DNA of 64,000 nucleotides from an uncultured Candidatus Saccharibacteria bacterium (GTDB taxonomy: Bacteria > Patescibacteriota > Minisyncoccia > Phycocordibacterales > JACOZG01), in the NCBI GenBank assembly GCA_964360815.1, contig CAYHYA010000001.1, positions 5,574 through 69,573 on the forward strand, in the 5' to 3' direction. Below the pieces are notes generated by a model that did not search any database, was not told where the DNA came from, and saw only the letters and a list, made by a program, of their open reading frames with translations. Position numbers and translations under genes: made by a program. Shown piece by piece: positions 1,056-60,176 of this stretch. Within the stretch, counting starts at the first letter, position 1. Each line of letters opens with the position of its first letter.

Positions 1056-3011
1056 TCAAATCTGACGAAAAAAGAATAATTCTACCTCTGGGAAAGTTTT
1101 GATGGAATTTTCGACATAATCGACAATTTCCTGACTCTGCTTTATTTTTGGGTTGAGCGTCAACCCTTTTTTAGCATACTCTCTTGCCTCTTTAAATTTA
1201 CCCATATAAATATAGGCCACGGCCTTTATCCAATATGATTGGGGATTTTGTGGTACTAATTCGATGGCTTCATCTAAAATTTTTTGGGCTTCATCTAATT
1301 TATTTACTTGGAATAAATTTTGGAAAATTAAAATATCCGCCAGGTTTAATTTGGCTCGAAAATGATCTGGATTATTCTTGATATAATTCTTGTATTCAGT
1401 TTCTATAACTACTAGCTCCTTTTTAAGATTCAGCGCAGTTGATGGACTAGAAAGCACTTCGGGATCAACGGTGATTGCGCGCTGGAAATCAGTTGATATT
1501 CTCCATAAAAAGGCGTGTGGATCAACCGGAGAAGAAATTAGTCTCGGATAAAGCGGGATACGTTCTTCGGCAGATTTTACCGCTCGCATTTGCCCATTAA
1601 CTATTTCGGCTTGCAGTAGGGGCGACAACCCCCAGACCGTTGACCAAATTACAAAAAACAACAAGAACACGGATAGGGGGTATGTGATTGCCGGCCTACC
1701 GGTCTCCCAGTTTACAGTTTTTCTAACTCTTTGAAACAGTATCACCGCCGAAACCATCATAAAAGCTAAGATTGGATAGGAAATCGAGGTTTCGAAAGCG
1801 GTTTGTAATTCTATAAAATGAAGTGGAAAATAAACTAACAAAATAGCCGACAATATTCGATCATTTTTTTCTGGGGAATTTAGGGCCGAGTAAACAAGAG
1901 AAAAAATAATAACAAGATAAACCAAAATATAAAGACCTAGGCCAACCGCTCCACCATCAACCAAATGATCGATGACCACATTATGTGCTCGATCAAGCCA
2001 CGCCTCATTTCCATATTCGTCTTGCAATACCCGATTATCGTAATGCGCCTCAAAGACTCGTTCAAAATTATCCATACCCCAACCAAAAACAGGTCTTTCT
2101 AGAAAAATTTTATTTGAAACTTCCCAAGTTATCGGTCTTACAGCCGTTGCCTGCTTAAGATATATTCTTTGTAGAAAACCATTTGGGGTTACGAGTGAGT
2201 AAGACGCCCAGGATATTAATAAAACACCGAAGCTCAAAATTGAGTAAGTAAAGATTTTTTTGTTTCGTTGATTTCTTATTTTAGAAATTAACCAAATTAA
2301 AATTAACGCGAACAAAGACAGAAAGATCACATAAGCCGACGCCCTAGCCTCTCCGACAAAAACCCCAGAAAAATCGCCAGACCAAACCTGACGGTTTAAT
2401 ATGTTGGGATTTATAATAAATGAGATTGGCAAAGCATACATCCACCACTTTTTGTGTTCAGATTGAAATAAGTAATATATAGATAACAAAAAAACGCCAA
2501 AAAGATACATCCCGGCAAAAGTGGAGTTACTCAAGGTAAAAGCATTGCCGGGATAATCTTTAAAAATTACACCCAGCCCGCCAGGGCCAAATAAAGAAAG
2601 AAGGGAATAAAATGAGGTTGAAAGTATAATTATTAGTAATATTTTTCTATATTTTTCTCGATCGGAAAATACTAACCACAAAATCCAAGCAAACAAACCA
2701 AGGTTGAGAAAATACCATAACCCCGTTGTTCTTGTCGCCAAAGACCAGAAAGAGTTGTCGAAATTAAAACCGACAAAAGCAGAAATAATGAGGGAAATAA
2801 AATAAAGAAGTAACAGGAGAAGAATTGGAGATTTTGGAATAACTAAAGTCTGTTTTTTTTTGAAAAGTTTGACAGCAAACCAGATAAGCAAAAGTGAAGT
2901 TGTAGCGATTAAAAAAATCGATCGCGTTGACGAACCACCATAAAGAAAAGATTGTATATTAATAAAAGGGAATAAGACAAAAAACAAATATATTAGATAT
3001 TCTGCAAACAT
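1056..3011 (-). CDS. Polytopic membrane protein with O-antigen-ligase-like (Wzy_C) domain and C-terminal TPR repeats; possible O-oligosaccharyltransferase
   Basis: About 12 predicted TM helices. The LDRAHNVVIDHLVDGGAVGLGLY block resembles the Wzy_C/PglL/PilO loop. The C-terminal ~200 aa are TPR-like (AIELVPQNPQSYWIKAVAYIYMGKFKEAREYAKKGLTLNP). The gene is AT-rich relative to its neighbours. Confidence 0.5.
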   Translation of the reverse strand: MFAEYLIYLFFVLFPFINIQSFLYGGSSTRSIFLIATTSLLLIWFAVKLFKKKQTLVIPKSPILLLLLLYFISLIISAFVGFNFDNSFWSLATRTTGLWYFLNLGLFAWILWLVFSDREKYRKILLIIILSTSFYSLLSLFGPGGLGVIFKDYPGNAFTLSNSTFAGMYLFGVFLLSIYYLFQSEHKKWWMYALPISFIINPNILNRQVWSGDFSGVFVGEARASAYVIFLSLFALILIWLISKIRNQRNKKIFTYSILSFGVLLISWASYSLVTPNGFLQRIYLKQATAVRPITWEVSNKIFLERPVFGWGMDNFERVFEAHYDNRVLQDEYGNEAWLDRAHNVVIDHLVDGGAVGLGLYILVYLVIIFSLVYSALNSPEKNDRILSAILLVYFPLHFIELQTAFETSISYPILAFMMVSAVILFQRVRKTVNWETGRPAITYPLSVFLLFFVIWSTVWGLSPLLQAEIVNGQMRAVKSAEERIPLYPRLISSPVDPHAFLWRISTDFQRAITVDPEVLSSPSTALNLKKELVVIETEYKNYIKNNPDHFRAKLNLADILIFQNLFQVNKLDEAQKILDEAIELVPQNPQSYWIKAVAYIYMGKFKEAREYAKKGLTLNPKIKQSQEIVDYVENSIKTFPEVELFFFRQI

Positions 3012-12869: not shown

Positions 12870-13700
12870 TCAGCCAACGGGCAAACTGACGGCCGGCAAG
12901 TTAAAGAAGCGCCGTGCGTTAGCCAGAGTGGCTTCCTCGATCGCGGCTGGGGTTAAGTGACGCAAAATCGCCAACTGCTTAACCACTTCTTCAACATAAA
13001 CCGGTTCATTCCGCCGGCCGCGCTGTGGCACTGGCGCCACGAACGGACAATCGGTCTCGACCATTAACCGATCGAGGGGCAGCTTTTTAATTACTTCTTC
13101 AGCGTCAGCCCTCGGCTGACCCGCCTTGGGCGGGAAGGTGATCACACCGGTAAAAGACAAACTGAAACCCCGATCGAGAAACTGGCTGGCCGTTGACCAG
13201 TCACCGGCGAAAAAATGAACATTCGCCCGCAGGTCAACGGCCTGATTTTTAAAATTGGAAAGAACGCCGAGAACTTCGTCGTAGGCCCGACGAATATGAA
13301 GCATGAGCGGCTTCTTCACCTTGATCGCCAATTCGATTTGTCGTTCGAAAATTTCGACCTGTCGCCGCCCACTCTCGCTCGATAGGTCAAACTTAGGTTC
13401 TCGTGTGTCTAGTCCGCATTCGCCGATCGCCACCACTTTAGGCTGACTGGCTAACTTGGTCAGTTCGGAAAGAATATTGGCCACCTCACTCGGCGCAGGC
13501 AAGTCGGTTGGATGAAGGCCGACCGTCGCCCACATCTCCGGGTTCGCTTCGGCTAAAGCCACGGCCGCCTGCGAAGTTTCGAGATCAGTGCCAACGTTGA
13601 TCACGCCAATCCCCGCGGCCCGCGCTCGGCCAATCACCCGCTCCCGATCCTCGTCAAACTCCGGAAACTGCAAATGGGCGTGAATGTCGATTAGTTTCAT
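12870..13700 (-). CDS. tatD: TatD-family metal-dependent hydrolase (DNase)
   Basis: MKLIDIHAHL...GLHP...ECGLD motif pattern of TatD/YcfH. Confidence 0.8.
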   Translation of the reverse strand: MKLIDIHAHLQFPEFDEDRERVIGRARAAGIGVINVGTDLETSQAAVALAEANPEMWATVGLHPTDLPAPSEVANILSELTKLASQPKVVAIGECGLDTREPKFDLSSESGRRQVEIFERQIELAIKVKKPLMLHIRRAYDEVLGVLSNFKNQAVDLRANVHFFAGDWSTASQFLDRGFSLSFTGVITFPPKAGQPRADAEEVIKKLPLDRLMVETDCPFVAPVPQRGRRNEPVYVEEVVKQLAILRHLTPAAIEEATLANARRFFNLPAVSLPVG

Positions 13701-13724
13701 CCGTTCGATGATAACATAAAAAAA

Positions 13725-14123
13725 CCCCTGAAATCACGAAAGTGATTTCAGGGTACCTCACATCGCTGTTCACGCTTAGGGATGACAGCTCAAATGTGTT
13801 TTCCTGAAGTCAGGATTTTTAACTTCAGTAAGCCTTCTTGATAACGGCCAAGTGGCGAAGCCGGCATCGAAACATTTTTTTATCATCCTTGCGGTTTGGA
13901 AGTTCCAAAGTCGATGCGCGCCTTTTCCCAACCTTACCGCAAGAGTCAATTCACCTGGTGGCGGATGAATTAACGGTGTAACTCGTTGCCACCAATCCCT
14001 TTCTTGCTTTCGGCCATACGAGTTTTATGGGCGAAAGGAGGAGGGACAAAAAGGTTCAGGATTTCAGGGCTGTACCTCGTGCTTCCCTGAAGATTCGTGC
14101 TCGAGTTCCTGCAACCTCTTCTA
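13725..14123 (-). ncRNA. Candidate ~400-nt structured non-coding RNA (class unknown) with its own promoter and intrinsic terminator
   Basis: A 510-bp gap lacks any ORF of 60 aa or longer. A sigma70-like promoter lies on the minus strand (TTGACA, 16 nt, TATACT). The 3' end is a perfect 12-bp GNRA-capped hairpin (CCCTGAAATCAC-gaaa-GTGATTTCAGGG) plus U7. Several internal inverted repeats and a repeated GAUUUCAGGG(CU)GUACCUC motif are present. Confidence 0.35.
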
Positions 14124-14129
14124 CTTTTA

Positions 14130-14157
14130 AGTATACATGAGACATTGATTCTGTCAA
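14130..14157 (-). promoter_or_regulatory. Sigma70-like promoter for the candidate ncRNA (-35 TTGACA, 16-nt spacer, -10 TATACT)
   Basis: Read on the minus strand as cacTTGACAgaatcaatgtctcatgTATACTtaaaag, 50 bp downstream of the metG stop. Confidence 0.4.
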
Positions 14158-14210
14158 GTGTTTATTTATGATTGAGTGATCGGGTTACTAAAATACGCCT
14201 AAAAACAAGG

Positions 14211-15671
14211 TTATTTCCGTGGAAATAGCGGTGGGGTCGGTGGCTGATTGATCTTAATACCGTCAATGATTTTTTCAGCGGTTGCCGGCATAAAAGGTTT
14301 GAGCGCGACAGCCAGATCGGCCAAACCTTGAACCAGTTTGGCGATGTCGGCGCGGGCGGTGGTCGGATCAGTTTTGATTAAATTAAACGGTTGAGTTTTC
14401 TGGATGTAGGCATCGTGGAGACCAATCTGCCGCCAGATTTCGTCCATTGCCTGACTAAACTGATAACCGGCGAGCGGCGTGGTTAAATGACTAAAAGCCG
14501 AGATTGATCGGCGTTCGTAGACGAACGGTTGGGATAAATGCGCGCTCGCAAGCGTCATCACCCGACTAACTAAATTACCCAAACCGTTCGCCAGATTGGC
14601 GTTGTAACACTCTTTAAATTTTTCCAACGTGACATCAGTATCTTCGAACGGTTGGACGTGACGGAGGAGAAAATAGCGCACCGCGTCAGTGCCGTATTCT
14701 TCGACTAGCTTGAACGGGTCAATCACGTTGCCGAGCGATTTCGACATTTTCTGACCGCCGCTCGTGATAAATCCATGAATCACAATTTGCCGCGACGGTG
14801 GCAAACCAACCGACAAAAGCATCGCTGGCCACATTGCCGCCTGCTGACGAAGATTATCTTTGCCGGCAAACTGGGTGACTGGCCACCACTTGTTGAAGCG
14901 GTTTTCGTCAGCGGGCCAACCGATCGCGGAAATATAGTTGACGAGGGCATCAAACCAAACGTACATCGTGTGCGCCGGATCGTCCGGTACTGGCACGCCC
15001 CACGGTTGCTTGGCCACCGAACGCGAAATGGAAAAATCTTCCAGTCCCCGACCAACAAACTCCCGAACCTCGTTTAGCCGAGAATTCGGCACGACGAAAT
15101 CTGGCCGTGTTTCGTAAAGTTCAAGCAGTGGTTTTTGAAATCGCGAAAAACGAAAAAAGTAATTTTCTTCGGCAATTAGTTCGAGTGGTTGGTTGGGATG
15201 AAGGGGGCAGAGATTGTTCGTGAGTTCGGATTCCGTTTTTTCCAGCTCGCAACCAACGCAGTATTTAAGCTGGTAATCTTTTTTGTAAATATCACCGGCG
15301 GCGGCCGCCCGCCGCCAAAATTCTTGGGCCGCGGCGACATGGGCAGGGTCAGTGGTTCGAACAAAGTTGGCGTCCGGCAAAATGCCAAGCATCGGCAATA
15401 ATTGCTTGAAGCGACCGGCCGTCCGAGTGACGTAGGTCGCCGGATCAAGTCCGGCTTGACTAGCCGCTCGAAAAATTTTTAAACCATGCTCGTCGGTGCC
15501 AGTGTTAAAAAAAACTTCCCGGCCAATCAAACATTCGTAACGAACCATCGTGTCAACGAAGACCAACTCCAAAGCGAAGCCGATATGAGGATCAGCGTTA
15601 ACGTAGGGTAGGGTGGTGGTAAAATAACGCGGCTCAAGCATTCTCGGCAGCGATCCGCTTTCTCTGTTCAA
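14211..15671 (-). CDS. metG: Methionyl-tRNA synthetase (short form, no C-terminal tRNA-binding domain)
   Basis: PYVNADPHIGF (HIGH-like) and KMSKSLGNVIDP (KMSKS). Class I catalytic core with a MetRS-type connective peptide. Confidence 0.85.
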   Translation of the reverse strand: MNRESGSLPRMLEPRYFTTTLPYVNADPHIGFALELVFVDTMVRYECLIGREVFFNTGTDEHGLKIFRAASQAGLDPATYVTRTAGRFKQLLPMLGILPDANFVRTTDPAHVAAAQEFWRRAAAAGDIYKKDYQLKYCVGCELEKTESELTNNLCPLHPNQPLELIAEENYFFRFSRFQKPLLELYETRPDFVVPNSRLNEVREFVGRGLEDFSISRSVAKQPWGVPVPDDPAHTMYVWFDALVNYISAIGWPADENRFNKWWPVTQFAGKDNLRQQAAMWPAMLLSVGLPPSRQIVIHGFITSGGQKMSKSLGNVIDPFKLVEEYGTDAVRYFLLRHVQPFEDTDVTLEKFKECYNANLANGLGNLVSRVMTLASAHLSQPFVYERRSISAFSHLTTPLAGYQFSQAMDEIWRQIGLHDAYIQKTQPFNLIKTDPTTARADIAKLVQGLADLAVALKPFMPATAEKIIDGIKINQPPTPPLFPRK

Positions 15672-18215: not shown

Positions 18216-18259
18216 TTGACAACCGAAAATCGGTCGAGTATGTTTATGATATTATCATA
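18216..18259 (+). promoter_or_regulatory. parDE promoter (TTGACA, 17 nt, TATGTT) with an overlapping 15-bp palindrome TATGATATTATCATA, the likely ParD operator
   Basis: Read directly, 16-60 bp upstream of the parD start codon at 18275. Confidence 0.45.
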
Positions 18260-18274
18260 TTAAATTATAGTACT

Positions 18275-18499
18275 ATGTCTACCTTATCCGTCCCCCTGTC
18301 GCCCACCCAAGAAGAATTTATCAAGAACATGGTCAAATCCGGTGCGGCGGCCAACAAGGCCGACGTGGTGCGCAAGGCCCTTAAACTGCTGGCCGAAGAA
18401 GAGGCCGTGATGACCGTGCTCAAGGCCGAGGAAGAATTTCGTCAGGGTAAATATTTCACCGGTGACCTAGAAAAAATCATTAGGAAATTTCCCGGCTAA
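18275..18499 (+). CDS. parD: ParD/RelB-type ribbon-helix-helix antitoxin
   Basis: SVPLSPTQEEFIKNMVKSGAAANKADVVRKALKLLAEEE matches the ParD consensus. Its stop overlaps the toxin start (ATGA). Confidence 0.65.
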   Translation: MSTLSVPLSPTQEEFIKNMVKSGAAANKADVVRKALKLLAEEEAVMTVLKAEEEFRQGKYFTGDLEKIIRKFPG

Positions 18500-18762
18500 T
18501 GAACTACTATTACGCGCCGTCATTCTTAAGGCAACTTAAAAAACTTGATCCAGCCATTCAAGCTGAAGCCATCGAAAAAATAAGTTTATTTAAAACCGGG
18601 GACTATGGTCGGCAACTAAAAGTTCACAAGTTAAGTGGTTGGCTAAATGATCGCTATAGTTTTTCTGTTGATTATCGCGTTCGAATCGTTTTCACCTACG
18701 TACACAAAAGAAAAGGTATCCTTTTTGTCGCAATCGGTGACCACGACGTGTACAAAAACTAG
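18499..18762 (+). CDS. parE: RelE/ParE-family toxin
   Basis: 87 aa. YRVRIVFTYVHKRKGILFVAIGDHDVYKN matches the C-terminal RelE/ParE signature. Confidence 0.65.
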   Translation: MNYYYAPSFLRQLKKLDPAIQAEAIEKISLFKTGDYGRQLKVHKLSGWLNDRYSFSVDYRVRIVFTYVHKRKGILFVAIGDHDVYKN

Positions 18763-28476: not shown

Positions 28477-29178
28477 TTATTTTTTAGACGGTTTTAACAG
28501 TTTCGCCACTCGCCGGTAAACCAATTCGTGAATGACCTCTTTTGGTTTAACCTGATTGTCTTGCTGACACTCAATTTTATACCAATTATTGTAACGTTTA
28601 ATAATACCGGAAGCATTTTTTTGCGATTCGACCAAGTGCTTGAGATTGTCTTCGGCCACATCGCGGCGACCTTCGGCGTAGCGTTTTTTAAAAGCCAATA
28701 ATTTGTTCTTCAATAATTCCTGACTCAAAGCAACCGACAAATGAAGATATAAAATCAGGTCGGGGCGCGGAATTTTAAAAACTTCGTATTCCATTTTTTC
28801 GAGCCAATGGAGAAAAAGTCGGCGATCGGCTTCGTCGGTGATTTTACTTCCCTGGTGAATCTGGTTGGCGCTAACGTAGCGATCGGCCACCACCGTATAG
28901 CCGGCGGCCAACCAGCGGCGGATTTGGCCGCTTGACTCAAAACGGTCGGCGGCATAAAGCACCGAGGCGACATGCGGATCCATTTCGATAAAGTCACCGT
29001 ATTTACCCGAAAGATACTCGCCGAGCAGTTTGCCGAAAAAGTTTTTGTAATAATTAGGAAACTCAACCGCCTTAGCCTTCTTCCCCTCGCGCCGCAAGCG
29101 TTGGACGAGTAGCGCCGCCTGGGTTGCTTTACCCGTACCATCAATCCCGTCAATGACGATAAATTTACCTTTGGCCAT
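28477..29178 (-). CDS. tmk: Thymidylate kinase-like (dTMP kinase)
   Basis: P-loop FIVIDGIDGTGKATQ and LYAADR LID/NMP-region similarity to Tmk. It is adjacent to glyA. Confidence 0.55.
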   Translation of the reverse strand: MAKGKFIVIDGIDGTGKATQAALLVQRLRREGKKAKAVEFPNYYKNFFGKLLGEYLSGKYGDFIEMDPHVASVLYAADRFESSGQIRRWLAAGYTVVADRYVSANQIHQGSKITDEADRRLFLHWLEKMEYEVFKIPRPDLILYLHLSVALSQELLKNKLLAFKKRYAEGRRDVAEDNLKHLVESQKNASGIIKRYNNWYKIECQQDNQVKPKEVIHELVYRRVAKLLKPSKK

Positions 29179-30394
29179 TTTTAAGCTGAGAATTTAAAAT
29201 TCGGTTGATTCGTCTGGCAATTGAGATCATGTCTTTTTCCTTTCGACCGCGCGTAGTTTCAGCAGCCGTTCCAACCCTGATACCCGACGGATCGACTGGC
29301 GAACGAGTGTCGAAAGGAATGTTATTCTTATTAACAATAATACCGTGTTGCTCCAATAAGTCACTCGCGACCTTACCCGACAAGCCCCGACCGTCCTGCC
29401 AAGTATCAACGAGAAGTAGGTGGGAATCCGTGCCACCGGTCACCAAGCGGAAGCCACCGCGCGATAATTCCTTGGCCAACACTTTAGCATTTTTTACCAC
29501 TTGACGGGCATACTTCTTAAAGGCGCTAGTGCTGGCTTCCTTCAGCGTCACGGCCACCGCGGCAATCTGATTTAAATGCGGACCACCCTGAAGACCGGGA
29601 AAAACCGCTTTGTCTATTTTTTTGTTTAGTTCACGCGCGTCAATTTTTGAGAAAATTAAAGCACTGCGCGGGCCGCGCAAAGTTTTGTGGGTCGTCGTTG
29701 TCACCACGTCGGCAAACGGAAACGGTGACGGATAAACCCGGCCAGCGACCAAGCCAGCGAGATGCGACAGGTCAACCAACAAGATCGCGCCAACGGTGTC
29801 GGCGATGGTGCGGAATTTCTGCCAGTCAATAATCCGCGGATAGGCGGTGTAACCGGCGACGATGAGTGCTGGCTTTTCCCGCGCGGCCAGCGCGCCGATT
29901 GCCGCATAATCAAGTTGTTCCGTTTGACGATTAACGCCGTAATAAACCGGCGACCAAAACTGCCCGGTGATAGAAACCTTGTGTCCGTGCGTCAAGTGAC
30001 CGCCATGATCGAGTGCCAACCCCATGATTTTGGCGCCGCGTGGCACGAGACCTAAATACACCGCCAAATTAGCCGGCGAACCGGAAAGTGGTTGCACGTT
30101 CACCGCCCAATCGCTACTTTTCAAACCGAAAAGTTTTAGTGCTCGCGCTTGGCAAAGTTCTTCAATTTGATCAACAATTTTATTGCCGCCGTAATAACGG
30201 CGGCCGGAATAGCCCTCGGCATATTTGTTCGTTAGCTCCGAACCGAGCGCTGTTAACACGTCTTTGGAAACATAGTTTTCCGAGGCGATCAAATTGATAA
30301 CTCGCTTTTGTCGCCCCCGTTCGGCTTTAATTAAACGTTCAATTGGTTTATCCAACATTGGCCATAAATTAGCATAAAGAAGATAAAGCCCCAA
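29165..30394 (-). CDS. glyA: Serine hydroxymethyltransferase
   Basis: LIASENYVSKDVLTALGSELTNKYAEGYSG...TTTTHKTLRGPRSALIF carries the PLP-lysine motif. Confidence 0.9.
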   Translation of the reverse strand: MGLYLLYANLWPMLDKPIERLIKAERGRQKRVINLIASENYVSKDVLTALGSELTNKYAEGYSGRRYYGGNKIVDQIEELCQARALKLFGLKSSDWAVNVQPLSGSPANLAVYLGLVPRGAKIMGLALDHGGHLTHGHKVSITGQFWSPVYYGVNRQTEQLDYAAIGALAAREKPALIVAGYTAYPRIIDWQKFRTIADTVGAILLVDLSHLAGLVAGRVYPSPFPFADVVTTTTHKTLRGPRSALIFSKIDARELNKKIDKAVFPGLQGGPHLNQIAAVAVTLKEASTSAFKKYARQVVKNAKVLAKELSRGGFRLVTGGTDSHLLLVDTWQDGRGLSGKVASDLLEQHGIIVNKNNIPFDTRSPVDPSGIRVGTAAETTRGRKEKDMISIARRINRILNSQLKNGQR

Positions 30395-30445
30395 CCGTTC
30401 GCGGTTGGGGCTTTAATTAGCCGGAATTAGCGATCAAAATGGGAG

Positions 30446-31180
30446 CTAGGCCGCTCCCGTTCCAAACTGTGATTGTTCCAGAACAAGAGTACCACAATCA
30501 CACGGACACCGACGACACTCCGGACAACCCGGAAAATATCTAGTTTCGATGGCCTGATTCAGATCAATTCTGATCAAGTTGGCCAGTGATAAGAGCCAAC
30601 TAATGACATCTGCACATTCAAGGGCGTAGTTCATTTCAAGATGATCAACCGACAAACCGGGAAAAATGTCGGCCCCACCGACAATGGCTCCCATCTCGCC
30701 AATTTCCATAAAAATACGGTTCAAGCAAACCGTCACTCCTCCAGATTGATGGTTTGCTAAGCCATAAATATTTTCCAGTGCCACCTGCGATTCACGCAGA
30801 GTGCGTCCATAAAGTCGACCGTTTTCACTATCAACACACCAATCTTTTCTATTGAAGCGCAGATCTCTTGGCGGACGATCCTTGGGACATTCACAAGGAC
30901 GCTTACCACAATAACTACACGCCGATCCAGACCACTTGAAGGCGAATGCCTCCGGCAAGGGTAGATCGTCAAAATAATTGGCGACCGCCATTAACCAGGC
31001 AAAAACATCGGCCAGACAATAAGCAGTGATACCGTGTTGATCTTTTCTCAGTGTCTCACCTAGTTGTCGACACGCAACAAGTAAACGAGTAAACCTCTTT
31101 TCCAGGGAAATAAAATAGTTGTTCCGTCGACCGTAGATACGACGAAAATGCGCCTGCCATTCAGCGAGAGTTCGATTCAC
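30446..31180 (-). CDS. Tandem MazG-like nucleoside-triphosphate pyrophosphohydrolase domains, each followed by a Cys cluster; candidate dimeric-dUTPase-type enzyme
   Basis: Two repeats with the MazG EExxE/D-like helices (LGETLRKDQ...CLADVFAWLMAVANYF and ECADVISWLLSLANLIRIDL). CSYCGKRPCEC and CPECRRCPCDC clusters are present. Confidence 0.4.
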   Translation of the reverse strand: MNRTLAEWQAHFRRIYGRRNNYFISLEKRFTRLLVACRQLGETLRKDQHGITAYCLADVFAWLMAVANYFDDLPLPEAFAFKWSGSACSYCGKRPCECPKDRPPRDLRFNRKDWCVDSENGRLYGRTLRESQVALENIYGLANHQSGGVTVCLNRIFMEIGEMGAIVGGADIFPGLSVDHLEMNYALECADVISWLLSLANLIRIDLNQAIETRYFPGCPECRRCPCDCGTLVLEQSQFGTGAA

Positions 31181-32581: not shown

Positions 32582-33601
32582 CTAGATCGAGCCAAAAGAC
32601 AAAGAACGCAAAAGATGCTGGCGTATTTTGTGTCCACGACAATGCTTTAGCACACCTAGATACGAAGTAAGATTGGCGGGAGTGATCTCGTCCCGATCCA
32701 ACCGCCGTAAAATGCGCCTTTTGGTCCGCGTTCGCAAAACTCGATAATGCGGCCGGGCGACGTACCCCAGATAATCAATTCCTTGGTGCAACTTACGAAT
32801 GATAATTTTGTCGGGATGCAAAGAAAGATTTAATTTGTTTTTCAAAAAATCAGAAATTGGCCAAATCAGGTTTTCTAAATAATCACGGCTTTGATGGACG
32901 ATGACAAAATCATCACAGTAACGCAGGTAATATCTGGCCTTAATTTCGTGTTTAATAAATTGATCAAGTTCGTTGAGATAAATGTTGGCAAAAAGCTGAC
33001 TGGTTACATTGCCCAGCGGTAAGCCACAACCAGGGATGATAGCGAAGCTCTCAACGACCGATCGAATTAGAGTGATAACACGGCTATCACCGATTACCTT
33101 TTCAATCAATGACAACAAGATAGCATGATCAATATTATCAAAAAACTTTTGAACATCACATTTTAAGGCGTAGCTTTGTGAATGATAATTACCACTGATC
33201 TTGCGAACAAAGGATTCTAGACGACTTACTCCACGATGCACTCCTTTGTTGAAGCGACAAGAATACGAGTCGTAAATAAAATGCCGATCAAAAAAATGGT
33301 ACAGTCCACGGAAAAGTGCTTGGTGTAGAACTCGGTCGAGCACCGGGGCCTTGTGGATATGACGTATCTTTGGGTCCCGAACGTAAAAAGATTGGTAGGA
33401 GGAGGGATGGTAAGCGTCGGAGACCAGATCAGCATGAAGTTTAAACAAATTATTTTCTAAATCGAACCCGAACTCCAAAACTTTGATTTTTTTGATTTTG
33501 CCGCGCTTGAATTCTCGCCAGGCATTGAGTAAATTAGACAGCGACACAACATGCTCCCACAACGACCAAGTAGACCCCCCCCCAACAGATTTCCTTGCCA
33601 A
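32582..33601 (-). CDS. Diversity-generating retroelement (DGR) reverse transcriptase
   Basis: RT motifs 1-7 with YCDD. Motif 4 reads LGNVTSQ, the DGR-specific [ILV]GxxxSQ that replaces QGxxxSP. 339 aa. The cognate TR and VR lie directly upstream. Confidence 0.8.
   Translation of the reverse strand: MARKSVGGGSTWSLWEHVVSLSNLLNAWREFKRGKIKKIKVLEFGFDLENNLFKLHADLVSDAYHPSSYQSFYVRDPKIRHIHKAPVLDRVLHQALFRGLYHFFDRHFIYDSYSCRFNKGVHRGVSRLESFVRKISGNYHSQSYALKCDVQKFFDNIDHAILLSLIEKVIGDSRVITLIRSVVESFAIIPGCGLPLGNVTSQLFANIYLNELDQFIKHEIKARYYLRYCDDFVIVHQSRDYLENLIWPISDFLKNKLNLSLHPDKIIIRKLHQGIDYLGYVARPHYRVLRTRTKRRILRRLDRDEITPANLTSYLGVLKHCRGHKIRQHLLRSLSFGSI
33575..33583. repeat. Homopolymeric C9 (G9 on the coding strand) inside codons 7-9 (GGG) of the DGR reverse transcriptase
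   Basis: Read directly: tagacccccccccaacag. The minus strand atggcaaggaaatctgttGGGGGGGGGtct encodes MARKSVGGGS. Confidence 0.8.
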
Positions 33602-33939
33602 TTGTTCATCAGTTAGGAGAATTATATAAGCATGTTTACCAAATTGGAAAGAAATTAAGTAAGGGCGACAAACTCGGCGTTTGGTCTAAAATAGAAATAG
33701 TGTGTTTGGAATGTCTTGAATTATCGATCACGGCCAGCTTGTTGCCATTAACATCAAAAACAGAGCCGCTTCGGCGATTAGGGTTAAAAATAGAAGTGAT
33801 GAAAAGGTTGATTAGGTTGTGTTGCGAAATTAAGATCATTGAAGATCGGGTTTATTTATGTTTAACTCAACCGTTACAGGAAATTTCCAAGATGACAGCT
33901 GGCTGGTACAAATACGCCAACCAAAAAGAGCGCCCTTAA
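33595..33939 (+). CDS. Possible Avd-like four-helix-bundle accessory protein (23S-rRNA-IVS family), encoded divergently from the RT
   Basis: ELYKHVYQIGKKLSKGDKLGVWSKIEIVCLECLELS resembles the IVS/Avd helix-1/2 pattern. The orientation is opposite to the TR and RT, which lowers confidence. Confidence 0.3.
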   Translation: MPIVHQLGELYKHVYQIGKKLSKGDKLGVWSKIEIVCLECLELSITASLLPLTSKTEPLRRLGLKIEVMKRLIRLCCEIKIIEDRVYLCLTQPLQEISKMTAGWYKYANQKERP

Positions 33940-33957
33940 GACGCCCCGTTTTGGTAA

Positions 33958-34076
33958 CACTACCTCACGAGTCCGACCATTCGGGTTGGCGTCGTCGCGA
34001 TTCCACCAATTGATCTTGAACTGTCTATCGTTCCAGTTGGCGTAGACGGCCTTGCCATCAGAGTTACGCGAACTCG
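33958..34076 (-). repeat. DGR template repeat (TR), 119 bp, Asn-codon (AAY) rich
   Basis: Aligns without gaps to VR 34352..34470. 13 of 15 differences fall at TR adenines (coding sense on the minus strand). The track's ORF 33874..34176 most likely just spans this non-coding TR. Confidence 0.8.
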
Positions 34077-34339
34077 CGTAGTATCCTTTCCCATCCATTC
34101 CACCGGCAATCTTAAAGTAAAATTGCCTGCGTTGATCCCGTGGTGTGGGGCAAAGTTTGCGGCCTGGTCTTATCAATCCTTACCGCCAGGAAAAGACACG
34201 CAGTGCTATTTAATCTTCTTGGCAAATCGTTATTCCGTGAACGGAACCGATTTATCAGCCGGGTTAAATTTTACAAATAAAAAAATCACCGCGCAACTCA
34301 ACAAAGAGACACGCGGTGATCTAGGATTAAAGGAAGAAG

Positions 34340-35143
34340 TTACGAGTTTAGCACTACCTCACGAGTCCGACCATCCGGGTGTGCGCCGTCGCGAAGCCAC
34401 CAACCGACCTTGAACTGTCTACCGTCCCAGTCGGCGCCGACGGCCCTGCCATCAGAGTAACGCGAACTCGTAATGGTCACGTTAATTAGGTCGAGATGAC
34501 CGCCCTCGATTTTTTGGTGGTGCAATGCTTCCAACAACATCCGCTCGCCAATGGTTGAGTATATAAGGCCACGTTGATCGAGTTGGTCCGGCGAAAGATT
34601 GGAGTATTCTTCACTTGGTTCCACCGCCCCTTCGGTCCAGAGAGCATAAACACTCTCTGGCCGAGGTTGGTTTATGGTAACGGCCTGATCGAGATTTTTC
34701 GTGTAACGAAAACACGGAAAAGCGACTTCGTTAACGCGGTAAATTTGATCGAGCGACAAGTTGGGGTCAACGACGAGTAGCGTTGGTTGCCGAAACCTAC
34801 CTGTCGGCAGGGTCGGCACGGTCAGTTTGTTCAAATCTATTCGTCGTTGGTGCTGATCAAGATAATATTGTTCCCACCACTCGAGATCGTTACCAATATT
34901 GACAGCATCGTCAGTCGCACCGATTAAGAAATTACCGACCCTTCTCTGCCATTCTCTTTTTTCCTTGACCAGTTTTTCGGCCTGATCAAAATCTATCGTT
35001 ATCGGCATCGCGTGAACCAAAGCACTGCAAATTTCCCTCGTTTGACCGAACGTCATCGGTTTCTTAACCACCGCTGGAACAGTACCGCTTTTACTCATGG
35101 TCAGTTTCCTTTCACTTAATTCAAAGACCCCGGCTAAAGGCAC
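34340..35143 (-). CDS. DGR target protein (variable protein); the C-terminal ~40 aa are encoded by the VR
   Basis: C-terminus ...SSRYSDGRAVGADWDGRQFKVGWWLRDGAHPDGRTREVVLNS compares with the TR-encoded SSRNSDGKAVYANWNDRQFKINWWNRDDANPNGRTREVV. No signal peptide was detected. Confidence 0.7.
   Translation of the reverse strand: MPLAGVFELSERKLTMSKSGTVPAVVKKPMTFGQTREICSALVHAMPITIDFDQAEKLVKEKREWQRRVGNFLIGATDDAVNIGNDLEWWEQYYLDQHQRRIDLNKLTVPTLPTGRFRQPTLLVVDPNLSLDQIYRVNEVAFPCFRYTKNLDQAVTINQPRPESVYALWTEGAVEPSEEYSNLSPDQLDQRGLIYSTIGERMLLEALHHQKIEGGHLDLINVTITSSRYSDGRAVGADWDGRQFKVGWWLRDGAHPDGRTREVVLNS
34352..34470 (-). repeat. DGR variable repeat (VR) at the 3' end of the target gene
   Basis: See the TR entry. 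The final ~21 nt (ggtcggactcgtgaggtagtg) are identical to the TR, including its adenines, which is consistent with an IMH-like unmutated end. Confidence 0.8.
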
Positions 35144-47390: not shown

Positions 47391-47465
47391 TGGGGTGCTC
47401 GGAGGGAATCGAACCCTCATTACCGCCTCCACAGGGCGGAGTTTTACCACTAAACTACGAGCACC
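47391..47465 (-). tRNA. tRNA-His (anticodon GTG) with genomically encoded G-1 and 3' CCA
   Basis: Folded by hand: acceptor GUGCUCG/CGAGCAC, extra 5' G pairing with C73, D-stem GUUU/AAAC, anticodon stem CCGCC/GGCGG with loop CUGUGGA, T-stem GAGGG/CCCUC with loop UUCGAUU, and CCA. Confidence 0.85.
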
Positions 47466-59769: not shown

Positions 59770-59991
59770 TTATTCTCTTACCAAAAAATGCACCGTATAG
59801 TAGGGTCTATCCACTCCATCCGCCGAACCGTGCCATTGAAAACTGTCGAAAATGATCGCGGTTCCCTGTTTTTCAGATAACTTCCGAAACCTCCTGTTCC
59901 TTTTCTTCAAAACTTTAAATCCCAACTCGATAATTTCACCATCAACATCGCCATTTTTCCTGGCCGGAACGCGAGCAACAAACGGCTTCAT
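59770..59991 (-). CDS. Small hypothetical protein (73 aa)
   Basis: Its start overlaps the upstream small ORF's stop (ATGA). No family recognised. Confidence 0.2.
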   Translation of the reverse strand: MKPFVARVPARKNGDVDGEIIELGFKVLKKRNRRFRKLSEKQGTAIIFDSFQWHGSADGVDRPYYTVHFLVRE

Positions 59992-60176
59992 CTGACCCTC
60001 GCGACAAAACCAAAACCTAGAGGTAGGCGTAGCTGATCTTTCTCATTGCTCCTTTGTCGCAGCCGTTTAAGCCTCCGGGCACGTTCATTTTTACAATCAA
60101 GACATCCCGACCCCTCGATCGACCCCCTATTACCACATTTCCCGCAGATGCCAACGGTATACCCTTTTTTATTCAT
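59988..60176 (-). CDS. Small zinc-ribbon-like hypothetical protein (62 aa) with a basic tail
   Basis: CGKCGNRGSIEGSGCLDC is a C4 pattern. The C-terminus is Arg/Lys-rich. Confidence 0.2.
   Translation of the reverse strand: MNKKGYTVGICGKCGNRGSIEGSGCLDCKNERARRLKRLRQRSNEKDQLRLPLGFGFVARVR

Follow-up and report, generated by a model that had tools for sequence, protein, structure and literature searches.

On the minus strand of the window (the whole 64-kb stretch of DNA that was analyzed), the genes for an AI-2E transporter, metG, tatD, rpsF, ssb and rpsR follow one another in this order, interrupted between metG and tatD by 510 bp without an open reading frame (ORF). What, if anything, does this segment (13701-14210) encode? 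About 93% of the window is coding, and no larger stretch free of ORFs of at least 60 aa is found in it. The genome belongs to the Patescibacteria (Paceibacterota-like), the nearest public relatives by TatD being metagenome-assembled genomes of that group. The original prediction placed a structured noncoding RNA with its own promoter and terminator in the gap. Our answer, which we hold with about even confidence, is that the segment may be an insert specific to this lineage, lodged between metG and tatD, and may carry an independently transcribed gene for a noncoding RNA.

No protein gene was recognized in the gap. Stop codons break all six translated frames, and the longest ORF, which has a TTG start, encodes 57 aa. 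Five frame segments searched against Pfam gave no match, and an exhaustive HMMER search of the 57-aa ORF against 1.8 billion proteins returned only spurious matches to WD40 repeats. None of the gap ORFs has a start signal, a family or a homologue. No gene is called in the gap in an independent assembly of the same population. A pseudogene of the C-terminal domain of MetRS was considered and rejected, as the MetRS of the window ends exactly where that of the closest relative (L001) does. A contig from Hainich groundwater (ENA assembly ERZ1292623, contig Hain_H51_01um_R1_6001) is 99.95% identical to the window. The RNA is identical in the two sequences of the population that are available, which are therefore uninformative on selection.

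The other long apparent gaps of the window consist of small protein genes or of the template of a retroelement. This diversity-generating retroelement (DGR, 32582-35143) comprises a reverse transcriptase ORF (32582-33601, minus strand; RVT_1, 7e-21) and a bAvd-like ORF (33595-33939, plus strand; 5e-7). Its 122-nt repeat at 33955-34076, a candidate noncoding template, is 86% identical to the candidate variable region at 34349-34470, at the 3' end of ORF 34340-35143. A DGR template was rejected as the identity of the RNA between metG and tatD, since the element lies 20 kb away and is unrelated. Another apparent gap contains a type II toxin-antitoxin pair (18275-18762), with a ParD-like ORF (18275-18499, plus strand; 3e-4) and a weakly ParE-like one (18499-18762, plus strand), next to divergent promoter-like sites at 18216-18281. 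In a further gap of 580 bp, two small minus-strand ORFs of 73 and 62 aa (59770-60176) have no Pfam match; the CxxC...CxxC pattern of the 62-aa ORF suggests a zinc ribbon.

The minus strand of the metG–tatD gap carries a promoter of the sigma-70 type (Table 1). With its 16-nt spacer, it matches the consensus at 11 of 12 positions, and the near-consensus promoter claimed in the original prediction is thus real. Over both strands of the 64 kb, only three sites reach at least 11/12, this one among them, and all three are intergenic when read by eye. By a rough estimate, about 0.003 such promoters would be expected by chance on the minus strand of the gap. Transcription would start at about 14125-14122. 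There is no start codon 5-9 nt downstream of this promoter, in contrast to the leaderless protein genes presented below.

The predicted RNA ends at an intrinsic terminator made of a stem of 12 perfectly matched base pairs (13753-13742 / 13737-13726) capped by a loop of 4 nt, the U7 tract occupying positions 13724-13718. Its calculated free energy is -20.2 kcal/mol and its pair probability 0.99. The hairpin and the U-tract had been described correctly, except that the GAAA loop is a reading of the plus strand; in the RNA, transcribed from the minus strand, the loop is UUUC. The distance of about 20 nt to the tatD start codon could be refined, as the U-tract ends 17 nt and the stem 25 nt before the ATG. 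Similar hairpins followed by U-runs are found after several other genes of the window, indicating that the organism uses such terminators. As this is the sole terminator-like site on the minus strand past the metG stop codon, transcripts of metG probably end there too. The features by which a small RNA (sRNA) gene is recognized, a promoter of its own, an intrinsic terminator and the lack of an ORF, are all present in the gap.

Table 1 Features at the metG–tatD junction, in window coordinates
Feature	Position	Strand	Sequence or basis
metG	14211-15671	minus	Pfam tRNA-synt_1g, 3e-88
Inverted-repeat left arm	14154..14170		CATAAATAAACACTTGA; pairs with 13715-13731
Sigma-70-type promoter	14157-14130	minus	-35 TTGACA 14157-14152, 16-nt spacer, -10 TATACT 14135-14130
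Predicted noncoding transcript, ~405-408 nt	13718..14125	minus	promoter, terminator, fold; RNA position 1 = 14125
5' repeat copy	14078-14060	minus	GAGGUACAGCCCUGAAAUC, GAGGUAC(AG)CCCUGAAAUC in RNA sense; sequence repeat search
3' repeat copy	13759-13744	minus	GAGGUACCCUGAAAUC; its CCCUGAAAUC part is the terminator 5' arm
Intrinsic terminator	13753-13718	minus	CCCUGAAAUCAC-UUUC-GUGAUUUCAGGG, then G + U7
Inverted-repeat right arm	13715..13731		overlaps terminator base and U-tract
Predicted tatD promoter	13716-13698	minus	extended -10 TGTTATCAT 13716-13708, 7 nt, ATG 13700-13698
tatD	12870-13700	minus	Pfam TatD_DNase, 3e-74

Between the U-tract and the ATG of tatD lies the arrangement TGTTATCAT-N7-ATG. 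An identical one precedes the gene whose start is at 3011, again following a terminator. Over the window, a TAnnnT box stands 5-9 nt before the start codon at about 14 of the 53 gene starts, the figure being about 0.8 per position elsewhere. Such -10-like boxes, often just after the terminator of the previous gene, precede for example the starts at 3011, 6197, 6278, 16683, 18169, 21997, 48039, 59676 and 63312. A clear Shine-Dalgarno site was seen in only about 6-8 of the 53 genes when the upstream sequences were read by eye. In relatives with other inserts at the junction, a -10 box is likewise found just upstream of tatD. The position of these boxes suggests that many first genes in this genome are transcribed as leaderless mRNAs, and tatD-rpsF-ssb-rpsR probably has its own promoter and a leaderless mRNA. 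This makes the RNA likelier to be an independent unit than an attenuator leader of the downstream genes. The layout of terminator, extended -10 box and leaderless ORF can help to annotate the transcription units of these genomes.

The RNA was compared with known families. RNase P RNA is marked by its conserved P4 strands and its J11/12 and J12/13 modules, tmRNA by a tRNA-like domain of acceptor and T-arm and by the reading frame of its tag peptide, and signal recognition particle (SRP) RNA by the domain IV motif; 6S RNA is a rod of about 180 nt with a central bubble. At the gathering score, the whole window gave no Rfam match for the region. When positions 13600-14300 (700 nt) were searched with permissive filters at E<=10, only noise was returned, in the form of subthreshold matches of the snoRNA and miRNA types. 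The models of RNase P RNA (RNaseP_bact_a and RNaseP_bact_b) gave no match in either search. Neither SRP RNA nor 6S RNA was matched in Rfam, and folding predicts hairpins arranged in a chain rather than one rod. For tmRNA, Rfam gave no match and ARAGORN found only tRNA-His (47391-47464) in the window. The proposed cmscan check thus returned no known family, and the earlier failure to recognize RNase P RNA, tmRNA or SRP RNA agrees with both programs.

T-box leaders, which are marked by the specifier of Stem I and by a T-box antiterminator overlapping the terminator, lie upstream of genes for aminoacyl-tRNA synthetases or of amino-acid genes. The segment is 3' of metG and 5' of tatD, it has no Rfam T-box match, and its GAGGUACC abuts the terminator rather than making a compact T-box antiterminator. 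Riboswitch and ribosomal-protein leader models gave no Rfam match for the region either. Three further candidates were rejected. A CsrA sponge was dropped as there are 7 GGA motifs versus about 6.6 expected (hand count, approximate base frequencies); a mimic of the anti-Shine-Dalgarno sequence, CCUCCUCCUUUC, was dropped as it is mostly within a helix; and a tetraloop receptor made of UAUGG and CCUAAG was dropped as the two halves are not in the same helix. The RNA fits no described family; what it appears to be, an orphan sRNA gene equipped with a promoter and a terminator, is of a well-known kind.

The predicted fold consists of a Y-shaped 5' domain (RNA positions 5-78), a hairpin at 79-131, a central domain (132-295) whose fold is less certain, two hairpins (298-322 and 328-367) and the terminator. 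Several helices have pair probabilities above 0.9. The minimum free energy of the 408-nt transcript is -139.9 kcal/mol, with a z-score of -4.58 against dinucleotide shuffles. After removal of the terminator, the z-score is -3.33 for the minus strand versus -2.12 for the plus strand, a modest preference in the expected direction, for the transcribed strand. Among 936 real windows of 408 nt from the same DNA, GC-corrected, the fold ranks 16th (top ~2%), some coding windows folding better. The structure is above background and is no extreme outlier. One of the two most stable 408-nt folds in the region, GC-corrected, is at 30057-30465 (minus strand), where ORF 29165-30394 meets ORF 30446-31180; a hairpin resembling a terminator overlaps the TTG listed as the start at 30394, and this start is therefore probably wrong.

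Tertiary candidates can be drawn: an H-type pseudoknot (183-190:233-240 crossing 209-215:256-262), a kissing loop (101-107:141-147) and a helix closing the 5' and 3' ends, made by a repeated motif. This motif, GAUUUCAGGG on the plus strand, had been noted near 13750 and 14060, and its two copies were located at 13744-13753 and 14060-14069. The repeat as it reads in the RNA, GAGGUAC(AG)CCCUGAAAUC, has an alignment score that is matched by 3 of 300 shuffles. In the 5' copy, CCCUGA pairs locally with UCAGGG (14090-14085) and provides the 3' strand of that hairpin. The 3' arm of the terminator can pair with the 5' repeat copy, 310 nt apart, in a duplex of -19.5 kcal/mol; for the 5' arm of the terminator, alternative pairings are no stronger than -11 to -11.6 kcal/mol, versus -20.2 for the terminator itself. 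Of the other internal features reported from the letters, the CUGAAG/CUUCAG helix is present (13828-13820 / 13812-13804), as is the UAAGG stretch (UAAGGUUGGGAAAAGG); GGUGGC and GCCACC are in the sequence, and the predicted fold pairs that region otherwise.

The locus was then compared with its counterparts in relatives. The position of metG directly upstream of tatD is widespread, with a junction of at most 14 bp in about 20 loci. In the closest relative, L001 (TatD 67% identical), the junction is 5 bp long and the segment is absent; a Shine-Dalgarno-like GAGGA was read by eye inside the end of metG. L091 (TatD 59% identical) has the same order AI-2E-metG-tatD-rpsF-ssb-rpsR, a 6-bp junction and no segment. 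Wider metG–tatD gaps in relatives are always filled by protein genes, among them a 225-aa ORF, a pterin dehydratase, PaaX_M, and ORFs of 235, 261, 138 and 193 aa, and the inserted genes differ between lineages. In one lineage, metG has been displaced, and the place directly before tatD is taken by a DUF4268 gene. The tight or gene-filled junctions include those of L001, L002, L003, L010, L082-L087 and L091-L094; in L082, the inserted gene for a pterin dehydratase has a fragment of a reverse transcriptase on its upstream side. The insert of the window is the only one free of ORFs among the junctions examined. Tight junctions or unrelated genes in relatives indicate that the metG–tatD junction is an insertion hot spot, and to judge from these gene orders it behaves as a hot spot for accessory genes beside the conserved tatD-rpsF-ssb-rpsR block.

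Homologues of the RNA were sought in 95 tatD loci of relatives, among them 80 genome loci and 14 fetched by exact-protein look-up, and none was found by blastn or nhmmer. Comparison of the gap with the loci of relatives by tblastx gave no similarity, and tblastn of their inserted ORFs against the gap gave no match. A covariance model built from the single sequence of the 5' domain (R1) matched only itself in 719 kb. No match to phages and plasmids was obtained with blastn in 'distant' mode, and of two pattern scans over viral contigs, one gave 2 matches, attributed to chance, and the other 0. Among 5.8 billion protein clusters, no organism has a TatD more than 67% identical, the same population aside, which puts covariation out of reach. 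The description of the segment as lineage-specific holds in its strong sense: none of the relatives examined, whose TatD is at most 67% identical, has it. The description as a structured noncoding RNA agrees with a fold above background and gains no support from conservation or covariation in relatives, no homologue having turned up in the loci and collections searched; the claim of a structured functional RNA rests on one sequence.

Under the proposal of an independent RNA gene, the strong sigma-70 promoter would start transcription at about position 14124, the transcript of about 405 nt would fold as a series of hairpins, and the efficient intrinsic terminator would release it at 13724-13718. 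The same terminator would end the transcripts of metG and would insulate tatD-rpsF-ssb-rpsR, which would restart as a leaderless mRNA from TGTTATCAT. The RNA would most likely act in trans, as an sRNA with a regulatory or protein-binding role; the single-stranded GAGGUAC motifs and the CU-rich CCUCCUCCUUUC segment are candidate interaction sites. It is from sequence that we infer its expression, its exact ends and any function in trans.

The same signals would be real, and a transcript possible, if the segment were a functionless or selfish insert with an inert RNA, either a miniature mobile element or what remains of an accessory gene cassette, in which case the selected roles would be confined to the termination of metG and to providing room for the tatD promoter. 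This explanation, the main rival, is unlikely overall, although it carries appreciable weight. It agrees with an insertion hot spot that holds unrelated genes in relatives, with the lack of the segment in the closest ones, and with the cassette of L002, in which promoter- and terminator-like sequences of its own were also read by eye. In addition, the segment is bracketed by a candidate terminal inverted repeat, 17 bp long and imperfect. Its arms are complementary at 14 of 17 positions, which 2 of 300 shuffles (~0.7%) reach; they are rich in A and T and share positions with the promoter and the U-tract, and the repeat is a weak lead to a mobile-element origin. Against such an insert, no second copy is found within the 64-kb window, direct reading of the sequence reveals no clear target-site duplication, and no frame retains relic protein similarity. 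Both the promoter and the stem, paired at 12/12 positions, are intact, and such near-consensus signals argue against old decayed DNA. Folding exceeds background, more so on the transcribed strand, and 500 bp of junk are rarely kept at a coding density of 93%. Another reading dispenses with the promoter, whose match would be incidental: the segment would be a long structured 3' untranslated region of metG, serving mRNA stability or termination if it has any function. Transcripts of metG must indeed run through the segment, as there is no terminator from the stop codon (14211) to 13753. However, a full TTGACA with an 11/12 match is unlikely to occur by chance in 510 bp, and L001 and L091, where metG abuts tatD, need no such region; we consider this reading very unlikely.

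The original prediction had offered as an alternative a long attenuator leader of tatD-rpsF-ssb-rpsR, which is disfavored here. Such a cis-acting leader, of the attenuator or riboswitch type, would terminate unless an alternative pairing formed. The terminator is indeed on the same strand, 17-25 nt upstream of tatD, the repeated CUUCAGG and CCCUGAA allow alternative pairing with either of its arms, and, most genes being without Shine-Dalgarno sites, read-through transcripts would still be translatable. Yet tatD has its own -10 box at leaderless distance, and the candidate antiterminators, at about -11 kcal/mol, are weak compared with the terminator. The only strong competitor is the 5' repeat copy, pairing with the terminator 3' arm; at 310 nt from it, it would lose kinetically. 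Orthologous operons of all relatives examined are without such a leader, and the leader, T-box and riboswitch models of Rfam gave no match, which makes this alternative improbable. A length of about 400 nt and a strong promoter also resemble those of stable RNA genes, and GGUAAGGUUGGGAAAAGG recalls J11/12 of RNase P by eye, with the support of no model. Nevertheless, a highly divergent RNase P RNA, tmRNA, 6S or SRP RNA would not be expected to vanish at this place in relatives with no similarity elsewhere in the loci searched, and neither Rfam at E<=10 nor ARAGORN supports one. A hidden small protein gene conflicts with the lack of any ORF with a start signal, a family or a homologue. A housekeeping RNA or such a gene has the faintest chance of being the correct explanation.

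In the Candidate Phyla Radiation, regulatory and structural RNAs have hardly been explored, since its members are uncultivated and annotation by homology misses their RNAs. If the independent RNA gene proposed here is expressed, a streamlined genome is able to take up a 400-nt RNA gene at a hot spot for accessory genes and to retain it. The RNA is a candidate from a single genome, and its wider significance is limited.

Comparison with known systems places the candidate among several types of element. Terminator/antiterminator leaders (T-box, ribosomal-protein leaders and attenuators) share with it a terminator directly upstream of a ribosomal-protein operon and repeats capable of alternative pairing; they differ from it in that here the downstream gene probably has its own promoter, the antiterminators are weak and the element is not conserved at orthologous operons. 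With MITE-like insertions it has in common a noncoding insert of about 456 bp, candidate imperfect terminal inverted repeats of 17 bp and a variable junction, whereas a target-site duplication is lacking, the 64 kb contain a single copy, and plasmid, phage and viral collections gave no match. The segment could also represent the first member of an undescribed class of large structured RNAs in Patescibacteria, accessory, acquired at a hot spot and with a real tertiary architecture, acting as a ribonucleoprotein scaffold, as a protein sponge or in defence; we give this little chance. Like OLE, GOLLD, ROOL and raiA, the candidate is several hundred nucleotides long, has multiple hairpins and is of unknown biochemical function. 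Those classes were defined by many homologues with covariation; the candidate, unlike them, matches none of them in Rfam and its structure comes from a single sequence.

DapZ and MicL of enterobacteria are independently transcribed sRNA genes of 80-300 nt at the 3' end of an mRNA, whose intrinsic terminator they share. The candidate, at about 405 nt, is longer, there is no evidence of Hfq or of a seed, it has no homologues, and its host is an uncultivated member of the Patescibacteria predicted to have mostly leaderless genes. Like DapZ and MicL, it has a predicted promoter of its own by the end of a protein gene, a terminator that probably serves the upstream mRNA as well, and no ORF.
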